Position numbers and translations under genes: made by a program
DNA from: Escherichia coli
GTDB taxonomy: Bacteria > Pseudomonadota > Gammaproteobacteria > Enterobacterales > Enterobacteriaceae
NCBI RefSeq assembly: GCF_013315695.1
Contig: NZ_CP054353.1
Strand: one strand, 5' to 3'
Length of the DNA stretch: 64,000 nt
The notes under the pieces: generated by a model
Told to the model about the DNA's origin: nothing
Database searches by the model: none
The model's input: only the letters and a program-made list of their open reading frames with translations
Part shown: in pieces, positions 19,556 through 47,724 of the stretch
Numbering within the stretch: the stretch's first letter is position 1
Layout of the letters: each line of letters starts with the position of its first letter

Positions 19556-19564
19556 ATCTGGGCC
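19556..19564. repeat. target-site duplication ATCTGGGCC (left copy)
   Basis: Identical 9-mer immediately flanks both IS1 ends. Confidence 0.9.
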
Positions 19565-19579
19565 GGTAATGACTCCAAC

Positions 19580-20083
19580 TTATTGATAGTGTTTTATGTT
19601 CAGATAATGCCCGATGACTTTGTCATGCAGCTCCACCGATTTTGAGAACGACAGCGACTTCCGTCCCAGCCGTGCCAGGTGCTGCCTCAGATTCAGGTTA
19701 TGCCGCTCAATTCGCTGCGTATATCGCTTGCTGATTACGTGCAGCTTTCCCTTCAGGCGGGATTCATACAGCGGCCAGCCATCCGTCATCCATATCACCA
19801 CGTCAAAGGGTGACAGCAGGCTCATAAGACGCCCCAGCGTCGCCATAGTGCGTTCACCGAATACGTGCGCAACAACCGTCTTCCGGAGCCTGTCATACGC
19901 GTAAAACAGCCAGCGCTGGCGCGATTTAGCCCCGACATAGCCCCACTGTTCGTCCATTTCCGCGCAGACGATGACGTCACTGCCCGGCTGTATGCGCGAG
20001 GTTACCGACTGCGGCCTGAGTTTTTTAAGTGACGTAAAATCGTGTTGAGGCCAACGCCCATAATGCGGGCTGTTGCCCGGCAT
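19580..20083 (-). CDS. insB: IS1 transposase InsB reading frame (expressed as InsAB' fusion by -1 frameshift)
   Basis: 167-aa ORF matching IS1 InsB. Confidence 0.9.
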
Positions 20084-20277
20084 CCAACGCCATTCATGGC
20101 CATATCAATGATTTTCTGGTGCGTACCGGGTTGAGAAGCGGTGTAAGTGAACTGCAGTTGCCATGTTTTACGGCAGTGAGAGCAGAGATAGCGCTGATGT
20201 CCGGCGGTGCTTTTGCCGTTACGCACCACCCCGTCAGTAGCTGAACAGGAGGGACAGCTGATAGAAACAGAAGCCAC
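20002..20277 (-). CDS. insA: IS1 InsA (transposition inhibitor / N-terminal part of transposase)
   Basis: 91-aa ORF with zinc-finger Cys motif (CPSCSA...CSHC) matching IS1 InsA. Confidence 0.9.
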
Positions 20278-20332
20278 TGGAGCACCTCAAAAACACCATC
20301 ATACACTAAATCAGTAAGTTGGCAGCATCACC

Positions 20333-20341
20333 ATCTGGGCC
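20333..20341. repeat. target-site duplication ATCTGGGCC (right copy)
   Basis: Identical 9-mer immediately flanks both IS1 ends. Confidence 0.9.
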
Positions 20342-39547: not shown

Positions 39548-40750
39548 TTATTTGATCACATAGGCAAGATATTGTTGTACGATTTCATCGTTTAATTCCT
39601 GACCAAGCCCAGGCAACTCTGGCGCGACATAATAGCCATTCTCGGGTTGATAATCGTAAGTACAAAGTTCCCGAATACATGCTTTCATCGCATTGGTATG
39701 ATGTTCATGAATAATAAAGTTAGGTATTGCAGTTTCCATATGCAGCGCCGCTACTGTTGAAACAGGCCCGCCACAAACATGTACCTGAACGGTTGTGTCA
39801 TATATATTGGCATAATCACAAATTTTCTTTCCCTCTGTAATGCCACCACAAAGACACAAATCAGGTTGAGCTACCGCAATTGATTGTTTTTCCAGTAAAT
39901 CACGATATCCCCAGCGAGTATAAGAACGCTCACCTGTTGCTATCGGAATCGATGTTGAACGGGCAACTTTCTGCATATTATCCGAATTTAATGGATGAAT
40001 TGGCTCCTCATAGAGAAAAATACGATATTTCTCTATTGCTTTGGCAAACTGGATCGCTGAATTTGTTCCTAGAAGAGAATGAATCTCTACAATAATATCA
40101 GCATCGTCGCCCATTGCTTCACGCATAGCGGCAATTCTTGCCTCGCCCATTTTTAATTGTTCGGCCAGTAATAAGCCAGAGTAATTTCTATTTTTGTTCT
40201 GAAAGACACAATCGCCGCCATGCAGATCGATTTCAAGCGGATCAACTTTTATCGCATTATAACCTTCTGCAATAGCGGCACGCGCTGCCTCTGCATACTC
40301 TTCAGGCGTTACTAATATTTGCCTTTTTTCGCCCCAACCAAATTGTAACTGACTGGCGTAAGTTCTCAATTTATCGTTAGTCTTTCCCCCCAGTAGTTGA
40401 TAAACCGGCACGTTTAAATATTTACCTTTAATATCCCATAAGGCAATATCAATAGCGCTCATACCTGCGTAAAAAACATTACCACCGCCCATTCCCCAAA
40501 ATGTTTTCCTGAAGAGGAATTCCCAAATCTTCTCAATGTTCAACGGATCTTCACCAATGATGAGAGGGGCTAAATCTCTGATAATACCAACACCAGATTT
40601 TGCACCTGCACCATAGGCTAATCCTACTTCGCCAACACCACTTATTCCAGCATCGGTATTAACCCGAATAAGTACTGGATTATAAGAGGCCATAGTTTGA
40701 TCTCTTTTTTTGAGTTCGCAGTCAAAAATTTCTACAGATGTAATCTTCAT
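39548..40750 (-). CDS. enolase-superfamily sugar-acid dehydratase (mandelate racemase/muconate lactonizing enzyme fold; DgoD/ManD-like)
   Basis: ORF 39548..40762; start placed at ATG 40750 (MKITSVEIF...) which has a GAGG Shine-Dalgarno 7 nt upstream; N-terminal capping domain and metal-binding barrel motifs typical of the family. Confidence 0.8.
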   Translation of the reverse strand: MKITSVEIFDCELKKRDQTMASYNPVLIRVNTDAGISGVGEVGLAYGAGAKSGVGIIRDLAPLIIGEDPLNIEKIWEFLFRKTFWGMGGGNVFYAGMSAIDIALWDIKGKYLNVPVYQLLGGKTNDKLRTYASQLQFGWGEKRQILVTPEEYAEAARAAIAEGYNAIKVDPLEIDLHGGDCVFQNKNRNYSGLLLAEQLKMGEARIAAMREAMGDDADIIVEIHSLLGTNSAIQFAKAIEKYRIFLYEEPIHPLNSDNMQKVARSTSIPIATGERSYTRWGYRDLLEKQSIAVAQPDLCLCGGITEGKKICDYANIYDTTVQVHVCGGPVSTVAALHMETAIPNFIIHEHHTNAMKACIRELCTYDYQPENGYYVAPELPGLGQELNDEIVQQYLAYVIK

Positions 40751-40762
40751 AAATAACCTCAT

Positions 40763-41998
40763 TTATTTAGCATGTGAAATAACATTGTCTTTCTGGGCGT
40801 TATCTTTTTTATTATCAATTTTCATTGATAACAAAATAGCTACGGCGATAAAGCAAAGAATCGCCTCAACAATAAATATCCCCGTGGCTCCATAATGTGT
40901 AGAAACATAGCCAAGTGATTTATTGATCAGAAAACCACCCAAACTTGAACAAGAGTTAATAAACGCAATACTGATTGCCAGGCCTGATGGTGAAAGTAAA
41001 GCTGAGGGTAAAGCCCAGTACGGACCGTAATAACTGAGAATGCCTACACCGTATAATGTTAATCCCATCATGCGCAGCGTCATCGAAGGTACAAGTGCGA
41101 TCATTAAAAAACCGCAACCTGCAACCAACATCGGTAGTGCGGCATGCCATTTCCTTTCATTCTTTTTATCGGAATGCCATCCCCATAATGGCATACTGAA
41201 CATCGCGAAAATAAACGGAATACTCATAATCAAACCGACATCGGTATCTGTGAAATCCGATGAAAATCCTTTAACCAACCCCGGTAACCAGTAATTTGCC
41301 GCCAACGCCGCTGCCTGAATAAACATATAAGCAAATGAGAGTTGTAGTAATACTGGATTTTTAATGATTGACAGAAAAGATGCATTTGTATTTTTATTTA
41401 ATGCTGCGGCTTTTTCGTTATCAGAATTAAGTTTATCGACCAATGCGGTGACTTGCGATGGTGTAAGCCAGCGGGCTTTTTCCGGACGATCTGGCAGTAA
41501 ATAAAAGGTCAGCGCCCCCAATAACACCGTAGGAATGCCTTCAATAGCAAAAAGCCAGCGCCATCCTTCATAGTTACCGGTATTCATATGTTCAATAATC
41601 CAACCAGACATTGGTGCCGCCAGCACAGATGCAACTGCGATTGATAACATAAAAAAGCTATTCACTTTTCCACGTTCGCGCGCCGGGAACCAACATGCCA
41701 GGTAGTAAACCATGCCAGGGAAAAACCCCGCTTCAAATATTCCCAAAAAGACCCGAGCGAGCAATATATGCTGGGTGTCTTTGGCAAAGAAAATTAACGT
41801 TGTTACTGTTCCCCAACCAACAATAATGGCGCTAATCCATTTTCTTGCACCTAACTTTTGCAATCCAATACTGCTCGGAGTTTGAAAAATTAAATAGGAC
41901 ACAAAAAATATTGAAGATATATTAGCAAAATCCTCTGGAGTAATACCAAGGGATTCATTCATGCGTAAAGCGGCAAACCCAATATTAACACGATCCAT
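40763..41998 (-). CDS. MFS transporter, anion:cation symporter-like (sugar-acid uptake); 5' end apparently frameshifted, see findings
   Basis: 411-aa ORF with MFS signature (DRVNIGFAA...) ; the expected first about 31 codons are in a different frame (ATG at 42090). Confidence 0.75.
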   Translation of the reverse strand: MDRVNIGFAALRMNESLGITPEDFANISSIFFVSYLIFQTPSSIGLQKLGARKWISAIIVGWGTVTTLIFFAKDTQHILLARVFLGIFEAGFFPGMVYYLACWFPARERGKVNSFFMLSIAVASVLAAPMSGWIIEHMNTGNYEGWRWLFAIEGIPTVLLGALTFYLLPDRPEKARWLTPSQVTALVDKLNSDNEKAAALNKNTNASFLSIIKNPVLLQLSFAYMFIQAAALAANYWLPGLVKGFSSDFTDTDVGLIMSIPFIFAMFSMPLWGWHSDKKNERKWHAALPMLVAGCGFLMIALVPSMTLRMMGLTLYGVGILSYYGPYWALPSALLSPSGLAISIAFINSCSSLGGFLINKSLGYVSTHYGATGIFIVEAILCFIAVAILLSMKIDNKKDNAQKDNVISHAK

Positions 41999-42180
41999 AT
42001 AGTTAAAAAATACAGAATAAATGCTAACGGAATAATCTTCCTTTTCACAATAGAAATGGCATCATACAAATCTTTCTGAGGACTGCTCATTTTGTTTCAC
42101 CTTTTGTGCTTCAATGAATAAGAGTACTACCCGAAGTGGATATTACGTAAAAAATAATCCAGTTCAAAAGGTGATGTGTT

Positions 42181-42196
42181 ATATCTGATATATCAG
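42181..42196. promoter_or_regulatory. palindromic operator-like site ATATCTGATATATCAG (copy 1) in divergent MFS/GntR promoter region
   Basis: CTGATATATCAG is a perfect palindrome; near-identical copy 70 bp downstream. Confidence 0.5.
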
Positions 42197-42250
42197 CCTG
42201 ATCATTGATTGAAACACTAACCTACAACAATAAGATACATTATTTTTGTC

Positions 42251-42266
42251 ATATCTGATATATTAG
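42251..42266. promoter_or_regulatory. operator-like site ATATCTGATATATTAG (copy 2)
   Basis: 15/16 identical to copy 1; 62 bp upstream of the GntR gene start. Confidence 0.5.
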
Positions 42267-42327
42267 ACACCTTCATTTATAAAATGATTACATATAATGG
42301 GTCAGCAGCTTAATAAGGGGCAAAGGA

Positions 42328-43026
42328 ATGAGAGATAAAGCGAAACGTGACTTAAGTCACATATCAATTGAGATACCAAAATCCGTAACCCAGGTCATCA
42401 AAGAAAAAATCAGGGATATGATAATTCATGGCGATCTCAGTCTTGGGCAACCGATAAGTGAAAATGAACTTTCGAATATTCTGGCGGTAAGTAAAACACC
42501 TATTCGTGAAGCTTTTATTTTACTTAGTCACAATGAAAATCTGATCAATATCATTCCACGCAGCGGAACATTCGTTTTTTCCGTAACAGATAAAGATATT
42601 AATGACCTCATAAAAATGCGAGTAATTCTGGAGCAGGGTGCAATTAGTGAAACAATGGAAAAGAATGCAAACAATGTCATCATTGAACTAAATAGTATAC
42701 TATCAAAATCAGCAAAAATTAATGCCGAGCGCGATACTCAGGCTTATCTTAAACTGGATCATGATTTTCATTATGTGTTTGTTAAATACGCTGATAATAA
42801 ATACATCTCTCAGGCACACCAATTGATATCCGCACGTTTACTTGCTATCCGTTATCGACTGGATTTCACTACGGAATATATCACCAATTCAAATCGTGGC
42901 CATGCGACTATTTTAGATATGCTAAAAAATAATAACGTTGAAGGTGTTTGTAATTTTATTACTCATCACGTAAGTAGTGGATTTACCGAGCGCGCACGAA
43001 AAATTCTCTCGTTATCTACACAGTAA
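42328..43026 (+). CDS. GntR-family transcriptional regulator (N-terminal wHTH, C-terminal FCD-like domain)
   Basis: 232-aa ORF with GntR HTH signature (ISENELSNILAVSKTPIREAF); strongly A/T-ending codon usage. Confidence 0.8.
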   Translation: MRDKAKRDLSHISIEIPKSVTQVIKEKIRDMIIHGDLSLGQPISENELSNILAVSKTPIREAFILLSHNENLINIIPRSGTFVFSVTDKDINDLIKMRVILEQGAISETMEKNANNVIIELNSILSKSAKINAERDTQAYLKLDHDFHYVFVKYADNKYISQAHQLISARLLAIRYRLDFTTEYITNSNRGHATILDMLKNNNVEGVCNFITHHVSSGFTERARKILSLSTQ

Positions 43027-43965: not shown

Positions 43966-46900
43966 TTACCATTTCACTGTCATCGACAAAAACCCTGCCG
44001 TCTGGGCAAAATCATCACTCCCTTTCTGCCACGCCACGCTACCACGCAGCGAAACTCGCTGACTGATATTGCCCGTTATTCCCACTTTTATTTCACCCCG
44101 TTGCTTCGCCGCATCGTCACTGATAGTGCTGCCATCTTCTTCAATTCCCGTCGAATGGGGATCGTGATAATAATTCAGATCTAACGTTGGCGTGACACCA
44201 ACAGCAGTACGCCATTCGCTGTGTAAACCCAGCCGCGTTTGAATATCATCACCCTGCGATTGTGACACGCGCGCATGGTTAGCGGCGGTAAAATCATCCT
44301 GCTGCACGCCCTGATAAATCACCTGCGTCTGCGGTTCAATCACCACACCATGCCCCGGTAACCACTGATAACCGGCTTCCAGCGAGGCGATAATCCCCGA
44401 CGAGTGGTAATGATCCACGCCATCGTCTTGTTCGGAAACATCATTGTTAAACCACACATATTGCAGCCAGCTATCCAACCAGGCCCCCTGCTTCTGATTA
44501 CCGTGCTGATACCAGCTTGAGGTCAGCCCAACGGCATAACCGTGGTTCTGGTTATCGGCGCGAGTTCCGGTCATATTCGAGCGGCTGTCGCCCTGGTTAT
44601 CGCTGTAGCCACCAACAATCCCAAGCATCCACTCGCCATCATCACCCCAGTGCCCGCTAAACAGGTTGCCGCTAAGCTGCACCGTAGAAGTGTCTTCATG
44701 CTGAGCCAACTGCCCTACCGCCGTGTAATGATAACGCCCGCCGATAACGCGTAAATTCAGCGTCTGACCATCGCCACCAGCGTGATCGCGTCGCTCCATC
44801 ACAAATGCCTGATTTGCCGCCCGCAGGTTATTAAAATATCCACCAACTTTGGCATTCAACACCGGCTGGTAGGCAGGCGTAGGTTCCGGGTCGGGGGTTG
44901 GGTCGGGATCCGGCGTGGGATCAGGATCTGGAGTCGGGTCCGGATCGGGCGGCGGCGTCGGATTGACTTCTTGCGATCGCAGATACCAGTCGTTGTTATC
45001 TTCCACCAGCGTATAGTCATACGCCCCCATATTGACGTAGCCGCTGCCCGCCAGACTGAACTGCGCATTGTTTTGAAATTGCGTTGGATCGGCTGCGAAA
45101 TCAACCACTTTAATGCCTGTAGATGTCGGCTCACCAATACCCGTAATGGGATTAATTACCACGGTCGTGTTGCCAGCAGTATTACCGTTCAACACCAGTT
45201 GGTCGCTTGCCGAGTCATCGCCGTTTAATTCGCTGTCGAGAAACAACGTACCGCCACCGGTGTAATCACCGTTTACCGTGAGCGTGTCGCCAGCGACGCC
45301 ATTTTGCAGACTGACAGCACCGGAAGTATTAGTTAGATCACCATTGACCGTCACGTCTGAAAGATAAGTCAGGCTGTCAGTTTCAAGGTTGGTATTAAGC
45401 TCGCCTGTCAGCGTCACACCATCGGTGGCATTCACCAACGTACCGTCGCCGCTAAACAGCGAGGCATCCAGCGCCTGGTTCGTATCCTGCTGCGTCAATC
45501 GCAACACAGTACCATCGGTTATGTCGATATCGCCGCCAGAGGTGGCATCGATTGAACGAATATCCTGATTTTGCCCGGTTTCAAAAACACCGTCTTCCCC
45601 CACCCACAGTGAAGAAACATAAGGAATAATATTCTCCGCTTCACCTTTTAGCGTTCCGTCCTCCACACGTACCGCAGACGTCGCAGTGCCGCTGGCGGTC
45701 AACTCAAGCGTCCCGCCGCCACTTTTAGTCAACGTGCTTACGCTATCCAGTTGTTGCCCGGTACTATCCGCCATCAACCCGCCCCATTGCGTATCTACAC
45801 CATCCTCAACGTGTATTTCGCCATCAGCGCGCATTTCAATATTCCTGCCCTGACCTGTTGTAGCCGAGCGAATGTCAACATCAGTCGTCACATCCATTTC
45901 ACTGTGTTGTTGGGGATCTGTGAAGATCACTGAACGGTTGTAACTTGTGTCCCCCAATTGCGAATTATCGCTGACTTCAAGCGTACCGGAGGCGATTTGC
46001 GTATTACCGAGATAACCGTTGTTATTCGCCAGCGTTACGCGCTGATCCCCCGCATTAATGACGACATAAACGCCATTCTGGCTGGCATCACTGCCGCCAA
46101 TATGTAAATCATCGCCACTGCTGATATCAACGACATCATTACTACCAATCACTGTCCCCCCGCTGCCGCTGATTTGCAGACCGTCATTGTATGAGCTATC
46201 GCCATCCCAGGTGGTGAAATCAGAGAGATCCAATACTCCGCTATTTAGCACGATCGATTGCGGATCGCTCTGCATTGCCCGTAAATCGGCCTGATTCCCC
46301 GCTAGCGACAATACGGCGTTATCTTCCACCACAATATCGCCGGTTAATGCCATCGACTGCGCCCCTGTCAGGAGATAGCTGCCATCTTGCGCTACCGTCA
46401 ACTGTCCTTCACCCTGAATCGAGCCGGAAAAACCGCCCTGGTTTACTGTAACATTGCCGCCTGCGTCGATATTCAAAATGCCATTAGCAAAACCGGTTAA
46501 TGAGTGCACAAACGTTTGTTGTGTATTGCCAACATTCAGTTCTGCCTGATACTCAGAATGAACAGTGCTGCCGACCATCAAACCAAAGCAATCCTGCGGA
46601 TCGCTCTGACAGTGCGTGTCGCCGACATTCATTAACTCATCGCTGCGCCCCAACGTCACCTCGCCATTCTGGATACTCATCTCGCCGGTAAACGCATTAT
46701 TGTCGGCATTGAGGACTAACTCTCCCGCTCCCTCTTTCACGATGACTCCCGTTCCGGCAAGAGAATCAATCGCGCCATCGTTGCTGGTATTGCCTATTAC
46801 CAGCGTTTTATCGGCGGCAATATTAAATTCAGCCACACTATGACCGATATACATAAAGCCCCCCGCCGCTGCCGTCGCCGAATGGTCATATCCCGAGGCG

Positions 46901-47724
46901 CTGTTATTTTCATCAATCATCACACCATTGTTTTGGTCATAATTATCATCAACAGAAATATCAATAAGATACGGGGATGTGGTGCTGCTGGTATAAATTG
47001 CTCCGCCATAACCTTCTGCATAGTTATTGGTAAAGGAGGTATTATTAATTATCGTTTTTCCTGAAAGATGTGTGTTATCCGTACTATTATCCGTAACATC
47101 AATGGCACCGCCGTCCCCATCACTATAGCTGGTTGATGTATATGCCTGATTATTATCAAAAATGACATCACTTAAATAAATATCATTATTGATAGAATAA
47201 ATAGCGCCACCTTTACCATCATTGGCGATATTATTCGCAAATATTGCATTAGTGATATTTAAATCCATATCACCGGCATCGTTTGTTCCCGCAGAATAGA
47301 TTGCTCCGCCATAGCCTCCTGCAACGTTACTGTCGAAAATAACATTCGCAAGATTTATCGTTGAGTTTTCTTTAGCAAAGATAGCTCCGCCATTATTATA
47401 TTCGCCACTAATCGAGTTATTAGCAAACAGGGTCATCCCTGTTTCATTTTGTGGTGATATCGTAAATTCAGCACTTTGCTGCAAAAATACGGCGCCACCG
47501 CTGGCATTATTGGCCATACCCGAAAAAATCACCCATTGCCCATCGGCGATGCTCCAGTCCTGCGTAATGCCTGAAAGGCTTTGCCTGCTGGCCTGACAAC
47601 TCGCTTTGATATCATATCCCTGGCATGAATCCAAAACCTCCGCGACACTGTTAACAGAGAAAAGAGATGCAATCATTGACGGGAGTAAAGATAAATACTC
47701 CTTGCGTAGAAAAATAATCCGCAT
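43966..47724 (-). CDS. yfaL: AIDA-like autotransporter adhesin YfaL (EhaC) with passenger beta-helix, Pro/Thr/Asp-rich linker and C-terminal beta-barrel
   Basis: 1252-aa ORF; signal peptide; linker PTPPPDPDPTPDPDPTPDPDPTPDPEPTP; C-terminal barrel ending in aromatic residue (KW). Confidence 0.85.
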   Translation of the reverse strand: MRIIFLRKEYLSLLPSMIASLFSVNSVAEVLDSCQGYDIKASCQASRQSLSGITQDWSIADGQWVIFSGMANNASGGAVFLQQSAEFTISPQNETGMTLFANNSISGEYNNGGAIFAKENSTINLANVIFDSNVAGGYGGAIYSAGTNDAGDMDLNITNAIFANNIANDGKGGAIYSINNDIYLSDVIFDNNQAYTSTSYSDGDGGAIDVTDNSTDNTHLSGKTIINNTSFTNNYAEGYGGAIYTSSTTSPYLIDISVDDNYDQNNGVMIDENNSASGYDHSATAAAGGFMYIGHSVAEFNIAADKTLVIGNTSNDGAIDSLAGTGVIVKEGAGELVLNADNNAFTGEMSIQNGEVTLGRSDELMNVGDTHCQSDPQDCFGLMVGSTVHSEYQAELNVGNTQQTFVHSLTGFANGILNIDAGGNVTVNQGGFSGSIQGEGQLTVAQDGSYLLTGAQSMALTGDIVVEDNAVLSLAGNQADLRAMQSDPQSIVLNSGVLDLSDFTTWDGDSSYNDGLQISGSGGTVIGSNDVVDISSGDDLHIGGSDASQNGVYVVINAGDQRVTLANNNGYLGNTQIASGTLEVSDNSQLGDTSYNRSVIFTDPQQHSEMDVTTDVDIRSATTGQGRNIEMRADGEIHVEDGVDTQWGGLMADSTGQQLDSVSTLTKSGGGTLELTASGTATSAVRVEDGTLKGEAENIIPYVSSLWVGEDGVFETGQNQDIRSIDATSGGDIDITDGTVLRLTQQDTNQALDASLFSGDGTLVNATDGVTLTGELNTNLETDSLTYLSDVTVNGDLTNTSGAVSLQNGVAGDTLTVNGDYTGGGTLFLDSELNGDDSASDQLVLNGNTAGNTTVVINPITGIGEPTSTGIKVVDFAADPTQFQNNAQFSLAGSGYVNMGAYDYTLVEDNNDWYLRSQEVNPTPPPDPDPTPDPDPTPDPDPTPDPEPTPAYQPVLNAKVGGYFNNLRAANQAFVMERRDHAGGDGQTLNLRVIGGRYHYTAVGQLAQHEDTSTVQLSGNLFSGHWGDDGEWMLGIVGGYSDNQGDSRSNMTGTRADNQNHGYAVGLTSSWYQHGNQKQGAWLDSWLQYVWFNNDVSEQDDGVDHYHSSGIIASLEAGYQWLPGHGVVIEPQTQVIYQGVQQDDFTAANHARVSQSQGDDIQTRLGLHSEWRTAVGVTPTLDLNYYHDPHSTGIEEDGSTISDDAAKQRGEIKVGITGNISQRVSLRGSVAWQKGSDDFAQTAGFLSMTVKW

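Follow-up and report, generated by a model that had tools for sequence, protein, structure and literature searches.

We analysed a 64-kb stretch of Escherichia coli DNA (the window), the minus strand of which carries the autotransporter gene yfaL, also named ehaC (Table 1). The encoded protein scores 2729.7 bits with the NCBIfam equivalog NF007285 (YfaL/EhaC), for which the cut-off is 1459, and protein residues 1-1252 align to model positions 1-1250. RefSeq annotates yfaL at identical coordinates in NZ_OZ547117.1, a record that is 99.98% identical to the window, and the annotation of that record gives the conserved chromosomal order ubiG - yfaL - ypaB - nrdA. The full-length equivalog match and the RefSeq yfaL between ubiG and nrdA confirm the original prediction that this is the yfaL autotransporter gene. 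A single yfaL copy is present in 5,419 of 5,426 E. coli genomes, and the variant found in the window also occurs in an O25:H4 strain and in further genomes whose flanks are at least 95% identical. Pfam searches found PATR and Chlam_PMP repeats in the passenger, and the N-terminus, MRIIFLRKEYLSLLPSMIASLFSVNSVA, looks like a Sec signal peptide; for K-12 YfaL, a signal peptide of 28 aa is given (PMC13101318). Overexpression of other yfaL alleles leads to adhesion, and O157:H7 yfaL deletion mutants lose HEp-2 adherence (PMC4321836, PMC7864753).

Table 1 Features of yfaL around the proline-rich tract; positions are those of the window.
Feature	Position	Strand	Description
yfaL/ehaC coding sequence	43966..47724	minus	1252 aa plus stop; AIDA-I-type (type Va) autotransporter adhesin; from ORF listing and translation
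12-strand outer-membrane β-barrel	43975..44760	minus	residues ~989-1250; Pfam PF03797, TIGR01414, AF2 strands 210-471 (fragment numbering)
α-helix predicted to plug the barrel pore	44809..44853	minus	residues 958-972; AF2 fragment residues 179-193
Proline-rich tract PTPPPDPDPTPDPDPTPDPDPTPDPEPTP	44875..44961	minus	residues 922-950; about four imperfect 18-nt units encoding PDPTPD
Variable linker between conserved anchors LRSQ and AYQP	44875..44970	minus	32 aa, residues 919-950; EVN plus the proline-rich tract
WYLRS, end of the closing autochaperone strands	44974-44988	minus	residues 913-917
Autochaperone domain (Pfam AC_1, PF18883)	45007..45339	minus	residues 796-906; E = 4.8e-18

The C-terminal part of YfaL (residues 780-1252) was modelled with AF2 from 68 diverse sequences, which gave a mean pLDDT of 91.4; an earlier AlphaFold model from 16 close homologues (mean pLDDT 43.5) was set aside. 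The best Foldseek match of the model was the AIDA-I transport unit 4mee, with a TM score of 0.92 (target-normalised) and an rmsd of 1.6 Å. The autochaperone region aligns to AIDA-I 4mee and IcsA 3ml3, with the IcsA autochaperone structure 5ke1 also matched, and from residue 959 (KVGGY) on the protein aligns to residues 149-463 of 4mee; the PF03797 match covers residues 991-1230 (E = 1.7e-31). Autochaperone β strands reach fragment residue 137 in the model, and fragment residues 141-170 are coil at pLDDT 67-68, the sole blocks with a mean below 70. The proline-rich tract is, in this model, the sole poorly ordered stretch within residues 780-1252. It follows AC_1 and the WYLRS strand end and precedes the pore helix and barrel, in agreement with its earlier description as a passenger-to-barrel linker.

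The tract, PTPPPDPDPTPDPDPTPDPDPTPDPEPTP, is a strict (Pro-X)14-Pro sequence. Proline makes up 16 of its 29 residues (55%), compared with 15 prolines in the remaining 1223 residues of the protein, and the longest run of prolines at alternate positions is 15 in YfaL against 4 in 2000 protein shuffles. The original prediction placed the tract at 44875-44965; the 29-aa peptide that it quoted is encoded exactly at 44875-44961, and the end coordinate was 4 nt too far. It had also described the coding DNA as near-repeats. Such a repeat is real: GGNTCNGGNTCNGG occurs four times in the window, all within the tract and at 18-nt spacing (44882, 44900, 44918 and 44936), against a chance expectation of 0.09 and with at least four matches in 0 of 100 shuffles. 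The repeat is nevertheless imperfect, because Tandem Repeats Finder (period 18, 3.4 copies) reports 72% matches and no exact internal direct repeat of the window allele exceeds 8 nt, compared with a longest repeat of 8-20 nt in other alleles. An open plus-strand frame (148 aa, 44782..45228, Gly/Ser-rich product) also spans the tract and might be the one to which the repeat belongs. A Pfam search at E ≤ 0.1 gave no match for it, and it is nested wholly within the full-length, conserved and annotated minus-strand yfaL; moreover, indels keep yfaL in frame and the period of the repeat follows the yfaL codons. We rejected the plus-strand frame as an effectively refuted explanation and treat the repeat as part of yfaL.

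Linker length was compared in three systematic rank-spaced samples (157 rows) drawn from the 5,419 yfaL-bearing complete genomes, so that the frequencies given here are those of samples and not of a full census. For one sample we used a flank-only query with the linker removed, because ranking with the linker in the query can bias by linker length. Genome samples, and not a 90%-identity protein collection, were used for allele frequencies because the cluster sizes of the latter are too uneven. A linker of 32 aa was found in 99 rows (~63%) and one of 26 aa in 40 (~25%), followed by 34 aa (n = 8), 24 aa (n = 6), 20 aa (n = 2), 28 aa (n = 1) and 29 aa (n = 1). Lengths therefore differ among yfaL alleles, and the in-frame length variation that had been predicted from the repeat is present among complete E. 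coli genomes. Further Escherichia proteins have linkers of 22-36 aa, which gives a range of 20-36 residues for E. coli lineages overall, and distant YfaL orthologues have 50-53 aa. Across 17 sequenced alleles, every small indel lies within the tract, between the LRSQ and AYQP anchors, and is a multiple of 3 nt; all alleles are open. After the linker, 302 residues remain to the C-terminus in all but one of 99 full-length homologues, the exception being a distant orthologue with 306, and 69 of 120 homologues have AYKP in place of the AYQP anchor. In two alleles (NZ_CP178670.1 and protein P0098), a large in-frame deletion takes out the end of the autochaperone domain along with part of the tract; such losses may be tolerated here, or the two alleles may be defective. 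One sequence, H160, was considered as a disrupted yfaL (half of the query matched) and rejected, as it is an ordinary 26-aa allele.

Individual length changes could be placed at repeats. The 28-aa allele equals the 34-aa allele less one 18-nt unit between two GATCCTGATCC copies, and the 20-aa allele equals the 26-aa allele less one unit between 20-nt perfect repeats that lie 18 nt apart. In the latter pair the flanks differ at 1 of 400 bases, a single recent event. All examined indels lie beside direct repeats of 8-20 nt, which fits replication slippage: the 18-nt repeat is degenerate, and occasional events of slippage or recombination at such direct repeats would add or remove whole codons, with a few discrete, lineage-stable length alleles as the outcome. 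Within groups that share a flank haplotype, length was constant. Of the sampled records, the 14 whose flanks are at least 95% identical to the window all have 32 aa, the 14 at 95.6-100% identity to the 26-aa allele all have 26 aa, and the O157:H7 records sampled have 32 aa in 6 of 6. Length thus tracks the flank haplotype, which indicates slow, lineage-level variation and no phase-variable locus.

Repetitive DNA in a surface-adhesin gene, several length alleles and the 26-to-20-aa change on near-identical flanks could also be read as a contingency locus, that is, a hypermutable simple-sequence repeat through which YfaL would be switched on and off, or altered in length, within a clone. Perfect short tandem units are absent, with an 18-nt unit at 72% matches and exact repeats of at most 8 nt in the window allele. 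No shift of frame or promoter spacing was found either: all indels are multiples of 3 nt in the coding frame, and since all examined alleles are in frame, on/off switching is impossible. Together with one length per flank-haplotype group and in the O157:H7 records, these observations make a contingency locus extremely improbable, and we rejected phase variation as an explanation. Slow slippage between short direct repeats is the reading that we carry forward.

We also weighed antigenic variation driven by host immunity, as in Bordetella pertactin R1/R2. The tract is surface-exposed and Pro-rich, and its repeat number differs between alleles, as is the case for pertactin (PMC8931430); in addition, yfaL as a whole is reported to be under positive selection in E. 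coli (PMC9110714). The text and supplement consulted name no positively selected YfaL sites, and indels in low-complexity alignments are a known cause of false positive-selection signals. The tract lies at the base of the molecule, beside the barrel and beneath the passenger, where the LPS layer surrounds it, and is no exposed β-helix loop. Diversity is also low, with about seven length classes in samples from 5,419 genomes and two classes making up ~88%. Both systems have Pro-rich autotransporter repeats, R1 (GGxxP) and R2 (PQP) in pertactin, whose copy number varies slowly between strains; the pertactin repeats, however, are loops of the β-helical passenger in a vaccine antigen under documented selection, whereas the YfaL tract connects passenger and barrel and is not known to be under immune selection. 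YfaL therefore shares with pertactin the allelic difference in Pro-rich copy number (seven length classes) but not the passenger-loop position, and we regard immune-driven variation as quite unlikely.

To place the tract in its family, we inspected the same junction in 148 representatives with less than 50% mutual identity. The junction has a median length of 32 aa (IQR 26-42, maximum 106), and differences in spacer length such as those among E. coli lineages are typical of the family. Between the WYLxS anchor and the helix, at least 8 prolines at 30% proline or more were found in 82 of the 148 representatives, a count that may be somewhat inflated because the query contained its own Pro-rich tract, and at least 5 prolines were found in 133. 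Many of the 82 Pro-rich relatives have PDPDPT- or PEPTP-type repeats at the junction.

These data suggest that YfaL/EhaC has in this tract its proline-rich inter-domain spacer, extended in conformation and with slippage-derived, lineage-stable length alleles, a reading that we hold to be probable as a whole. The tract would join the last autochaperone β-strand to the α-helix in the pore of the C-terminal β-barrel, and so should sit at the extracellular mouth of the barrel in the mature protein. Strict alternation of proline with acidic or Thr residues cannot form helix or sheet. From composition and a model region of only moderate confidence, a polyproline-II-like conformation that is extended, fairly stiff and negatively charged is most likely, and a role as spacer is proposed on the same grounds. 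At the textbook extension of ~3.1 Å per residue, a linker of 32 aa would be at most ~10 nm long, with ~6-11 nm for lengths of 20-36 aa. Such a spacer would hold the folded β-helical passenger off the barrel and the lipopolysaccharide layer. The extended-spacer role is inferred, and length may have a phenotypic effect; the original prediction that linker length could alter the surface projection of the adhesin between isolates is plausible. The literature searched contained no paper that pairs yfaL with 'proline-rich' and no experiment on the YfaL linker.

An unstructured segment between passenger and translocator, as seen in the AF2 model, could alternatively be a protease-accessible hinge that releases the passenger from the cell surface and has nothing to do with spacing. 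Some autotransporters are indeed cleaved near the passenger-translocator junction, and Ko et al. 2012, by its title, reportedly engineered YfaL for 'controlled secretion'. Pro-X-Pro, however, is a poor substrate for most proteases. No cleavage motif is conserved among the length alleles, and group 8 autotransporters, YfaL included, are described as outer-membrane anchored (PMC9289746), all of which leaves a cleavage hinge distinctly improbable.

The tract might instead take part in adhesion itself, as a ligand motif for host or bacterial proteins with proline-recognition domains. Cote and Mourez 2011 are said to have linked the C-terminal Pro-rich module of TibA to adhesion. Pro-rich regions of chlamydial Pmp passengers have been proposed as host-binding sites (PMC11166332). 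Against this, the barrel mouth is the region least accessible to host proteins, the acidic PDPDPT shows neither the PxxP-plus-basic nor the PPxY pattern that SH3 or WW ligands typically have, and what relatives share at the junction is only the proline periodicity and no specific motif. We consider a ligand function very improbable, and return to the spacer.

If the tract is a spacer, its length might be tuned to the thickness of the strain's own surface glycan (O-antigen modal length or capsule) and not be neutral, although we think this rather unlikely. Were it the case, serotype or wzz type would go with particular alleles in the 20-36-aa range, length would determine whether the YfaL passenger projects beyond the LPS layer and can adhere, and the near-universal Pro-rich junction spacer (median 32, up to 106 aa) would serve type Va adhesins in general as a 'ruler'. 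For autotransporter adhesins this would amount to a design rule of modest interest. Otherwise, as an ordinary component of an adhesin that is known and annotated, the tract is of little importance beyond bookkeeping. Relative to the window allele, ~37% of the complete E. coli genomes sampled have linker indels, and yfaL alignments, allele typing and positive-selection scans call for care at this low-complexity linker. For surface display, in which YfaL serves as a scaffold (PMC13101318), the natural linkers of 20-36 aa, and of 50-53 aa in distant orthologues, offer ready spacer variants.

Compared with the K-12 and O157:H7 YfaL/EhaC, the window protein is the product of the same gene, in the same ubiG-nrdA position and with the same domain order, and its linker starts with EVNPTPPP in place of EVTPPSPP. 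It belongs to a divergent class, with ~83% protein identity to the nearest listed full-length cluster representatives, while its C-terminal 473 aa are 94% identical to the closest of those listed. The B-strain (BL21-derived) allele likewise has a 32-aa linker, with a PDPDPT repeat near-identical to that of the window allele. AIDA-I (4mee) shares with YfaL the autochaperone, the pore helix and a barrel of 12 strands, but AIDA-I has ~11 residues from WYLTSH to the helix, without a Pro-rich spacer, where YfaL has ~40. AIDA-I works with this very short junction, and a long spacer is therefore not essential for secretion. Alternating Pro-X segments, such as the Glu-Pro/Lys-Pro region of TonB and the Ala-Pro hinge of OmpA, are thought to be extended, stiff connectors across an envelope layer. 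The YfaL tract resembles them in composition, but the proteins are unrelated, and those spacers are periplasmic where that of YfaL is at the surface. A parallel in the same position is TibA, the self-associating autotransporter of enterotoxigenic E. coli, in which 'an additional proline-rich domain' (residues 627-677) separates the junction region from the membrane domain (PMC3835316). At ~50 aa this segment exceeds that of YfaL in length, and it belongs to a different subfamily with a glycosylated passenger. The likeness is one of position; sequence similarity between such low-complexity tracts would tell little. Like a TibA-type spacer, the YfaL tract lies at the junction, has 55% proline without regular secondary structure, and recurs in relatives. 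In conclusion, a Pro-rich spacer at the autochaperone-barrel junction is a common feature of the family, with TibA as an already described case.

We confirmed that the gene is the yfaL autotransporter. Over its whole length the ORF fits the NCBIfam equivalog model for the 'AIDA-I family autotransporter adhesin YfaL/EhaC' (2729.7 bits; cut-off 1459), and the passenger part carries PATR and Chlam_PMP repeats (Pfam). The blood-culture isolate AF3 of E. coli (NZ_OZ547117.1), 99.98% identical to the window apart from one insertion elsewhere, is annotated with yfaL at the same coordinates, flanked by ubiG and ypaB/nrdA. The gene is single copy in 5,419 of 5,426 complete E. coli genomes. As originally noted, it encodes a Pro/Thr/Asp linker peptide from near-repeats. 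This tract follows a strict (Pro-X)14-Pro pattern, with 16 prolines among 29 residues, compared to only 15 in the other 1223 residues of the protein, and its 15 alternate-position prolines compare with a longest run of 4 among 2000 protein shuffles. Four copies of the DNA motif GGNTCNGGNTCNGG lie in the 64-kb window (chance expectation 0.09), all of them inside the tract and at exact 18-nt spacing, and Tandem Repeats Finder gave a period of 18 with 3.4 copies and 72% matches. This is a genuine but degenerate repeat: units differ in synonymous codons and the longest exact internal repeat of the window allele is just 8 nt. The antisense ORF across the tract had no family match and was rejected as an artefact of the repeat.

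Features of the yfaL gene and of other parts of the window
Feature	Window position	Strand	Residues	Basis
yfaL ORF, 1252 aa	43966..47724	minus		translation
Pro-rich tract PTPPPDPDPTPDPDPTPDPDPTPDPEPTP	44875-44961	minus	922-950	translation
Passenger	45388-47724		1-779	
Autochaperone domain AC_1			796-906	Pfam
Autotransporter beta-domain			991-1230	Pfam
Antisense ORF	44782..45228	plus		
768-bp insertion	19565-20332			
9-bp direct repeat ATCTGGGCC	19556-19564 and 20333-20341			
Three-gene block	39548-43026			

The insertion that AF3 lacks is flanked by a target duplication and contains two ORFs on the minus strand, 91 and 167 aa long, that resemble IS1 InsA and InsB. It splits atoS, which would probably leave the AtoSC acetoacetate two-component sensor inactive in this strain. 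Between gyrA and ubiG, the three-gene block comprises a mandelate racemase/muconate-lactonizing family enzyme, an MFS transporter and a GntR regulator. The latter two are frameshifted pseudogenes in the AF3 RefSeq record, and the window ORFs 40763..41998 and 42328..43026 also fall short of the spans annotated for the AF3 transporter and regulator.

To the AIDA-I transport unit crystal structure (4mee), YfaL aligned in two blocks: the autochaperone, ending in WYL(R/T)S, and the helix plus barrel, starting with KVGGY. These blocks are separated by ~11 residues in AIDA-I, compared to ~40 in YfaL, most of which are the Pro-rich tract. An AlphaFold model built from close homologues was set aside (pLDDT 43.5); the model used had 68 diverse sequences as input (mean pLDDT 91.4, pTM 0.86). 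It shows beta strands as far as WYLRS, no secondary structure at residues ~919 to 953, and then a helix (residues 958-972) and 12 barrel strands. The only 10-residue blocks with mean pLDDT <70 are the three over the tract (67-68). Foldseek returned 4mee as the top match to this model (TM 0.92 on target, rmsd 1.6 Å), with the IcsA autochaperone also among the matches. Alignment, model and Foldseek therefore agree with the designation of the tract as a passenger-to-barrel linker. More precisely, it is a spacer that, as modelled, separates the autochaperone domain from the pore helix.

The tract had been predicted to vary in length in frame between isolates. We measured linkers between the LRSQ and AYQP anchors in three rank-spaced samples of the complete-genome collection (157 rows). 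Two samples used a query containing a linker; the third used a 600-nt query of both flanks with the linker removed, so that ranking is independent of linker length and the record span gives the length directly. Linker length was not identical across alleles, and the variation was as predicted, with seven discrete lengths: 32 aa (99 rows, 63%), 26 aa (40, 25%), 34 aa (8, 5%), 24 aa (6, 4%), 20 aa (2, 1%), and 28 and 29 aa (1 each, <1%). In 17 translated alleles, every small indel lay inside the tract and changed its length by a multiple of 3 nt, usually a multiple of 6. Escherichia YfaL in a wider protein collection had linkers of 20, 22, 24, 26, 32 and 36 aa, and more distant orthologues had 35-53 aa with PPxPP-type repeats. 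The part after the linker is 302 residues in 98 of 99 full-length proteins and 306 in one distant orthologue.

Short direct repeats mark the indel end points. Removing one 18-nt unit between two GATCCTGATCC copies from the 34-aa allele gives the 28-aa allele. The 26-aa allele has a perfect 20-nt repeat at 18-nt spacing, and the 20-aa allele equals it less one unit, with flanks differing at 1 of 400 positions. Repeat-flanked indels of this kind are the hallmark of replication slippage or of recombination at short homologies. Length was constant within flank groups: 32 aa in 14/14 sampled records whose flanks are at least 95% identical to those in the window, and 26 aa in 14/14 records within 95.6-100% of the 26-aa allele. 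All six sampled O157:H7 records had 32 aa, and no out-of-frame linker was found among the alleles sequenced. These data indicate that length change is slow. Compared with the surrounding region the tract is a hot spot for indels but not a contingency locus, and phase variation was rejected since lengths are constant within flank groups and every allele examined is in frame.

Two alleles, L007 (NZ_CP178670.1) and protein P0098, carry a large in-frame deletion with one end in the tract, which is therefore also an end point for larger deletions. L007 lacks 168 nt (junction ...FAADPT to PDPDPTPDPEPTP, with DPT microhomology); the P0098 junction is ...GAYDYT to PDPDPTPDPAPDPTP. Both deletions remove the autochaperone closing strands (WYLRSQ). 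P0114, a cluster of 732 'partial' YfaL sequences, is closest to the window allele among the matches listed (96% identity). Its 934-aa representative breaks off inside the tract (...PTPPPDPDPTPDP), where the 2,867-nt contig that encodes it runs out. This may reflect a break that recurs in short-read assemblies at or close to the tract, or else an insertion at this site in some strains. At periodic proline positions, O157:H7 yfaL (L006) has Gln (CCG to CAG, ...DPDPTQDPDP...) and a large group of 32-aa alleles (among P0001-P0046) has Arg (...DPDPSRDPDP...). These substitutions argue for weak sequence constraint beyond overall composition.

The passenger diverges much more than the translocator, with identity to the closest full-length cluster representatives listed of ~83% over the whole protein versus 94% over the C-terminal 473 residues. 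Over the linker region the window allele is rare (5/5,419 genomes at least 99% identical). The passenger divergence fits the reported scoring of yfaL as positively selected among E. coli genes (PMC9110714). Pertactin-like, immune-driven variation of the tract itself is possible but unsupported, since the tract lies at the base of the molecule, ~88% of genomes fall in two length classes, and the selection signal, in the available portion of that study, is not resolved to sites.

The 32-aa linker has a net charge of ~-9. Judging from sequence, an alternating acidic Pro-X linker would most likely form an extended, stiff, polyproline-II-like rod. The polyproline-II rise is 3.1 Å per residue; such a rod could reach up to ~10 nm at 32 aa and ~6-11 nm across the observed lengths, and would keep the folded passenger clear of the barrel and LPS. 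A protease hinge or a host-ligand motif is an unlikely alternative: neither agrees well with an acidic Pro-X-Pro composition, with where the tract lies or with the lack of a conserved motif beyond the periodicity. The one question of some value is whether the linker has a length adjusted to the thickness of surface glycans. YfaL is reported to promote adhesion and biofilm formation, as judged from whole-gene deletion or overexpression, not from the linker (PMC4321836, PMC7864753), and our literature search found no paper on the YfaL linker specifically.

Similar segments recur across the family. Residues 780-1252, used as query in an exhaustive HMMER search, returned 3,534 relatives (E ≤ 0.001), of which the best 148 usable representatives (mutual identity <50%) were aligned. 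In these, the median distance from the WYLxS anchor to the helix is 32 residues (IQR 26-42, maximum 106). The segment holds at least 8 prolines at ≥30% Pro in 82/148 and at least 5 prolines in 133/148, counts that the query's own tract may slightly favour, and many segments are periodic PDPDPT-, PEPTP- or PVxP-type repeats. In conclusion, the tract is an unremarkable element of a kind already known, and the gene that carries it is annotated. Pertactin is a classic example of Pro-rich regions whose alleles differ in repeat number (PMC8931430).
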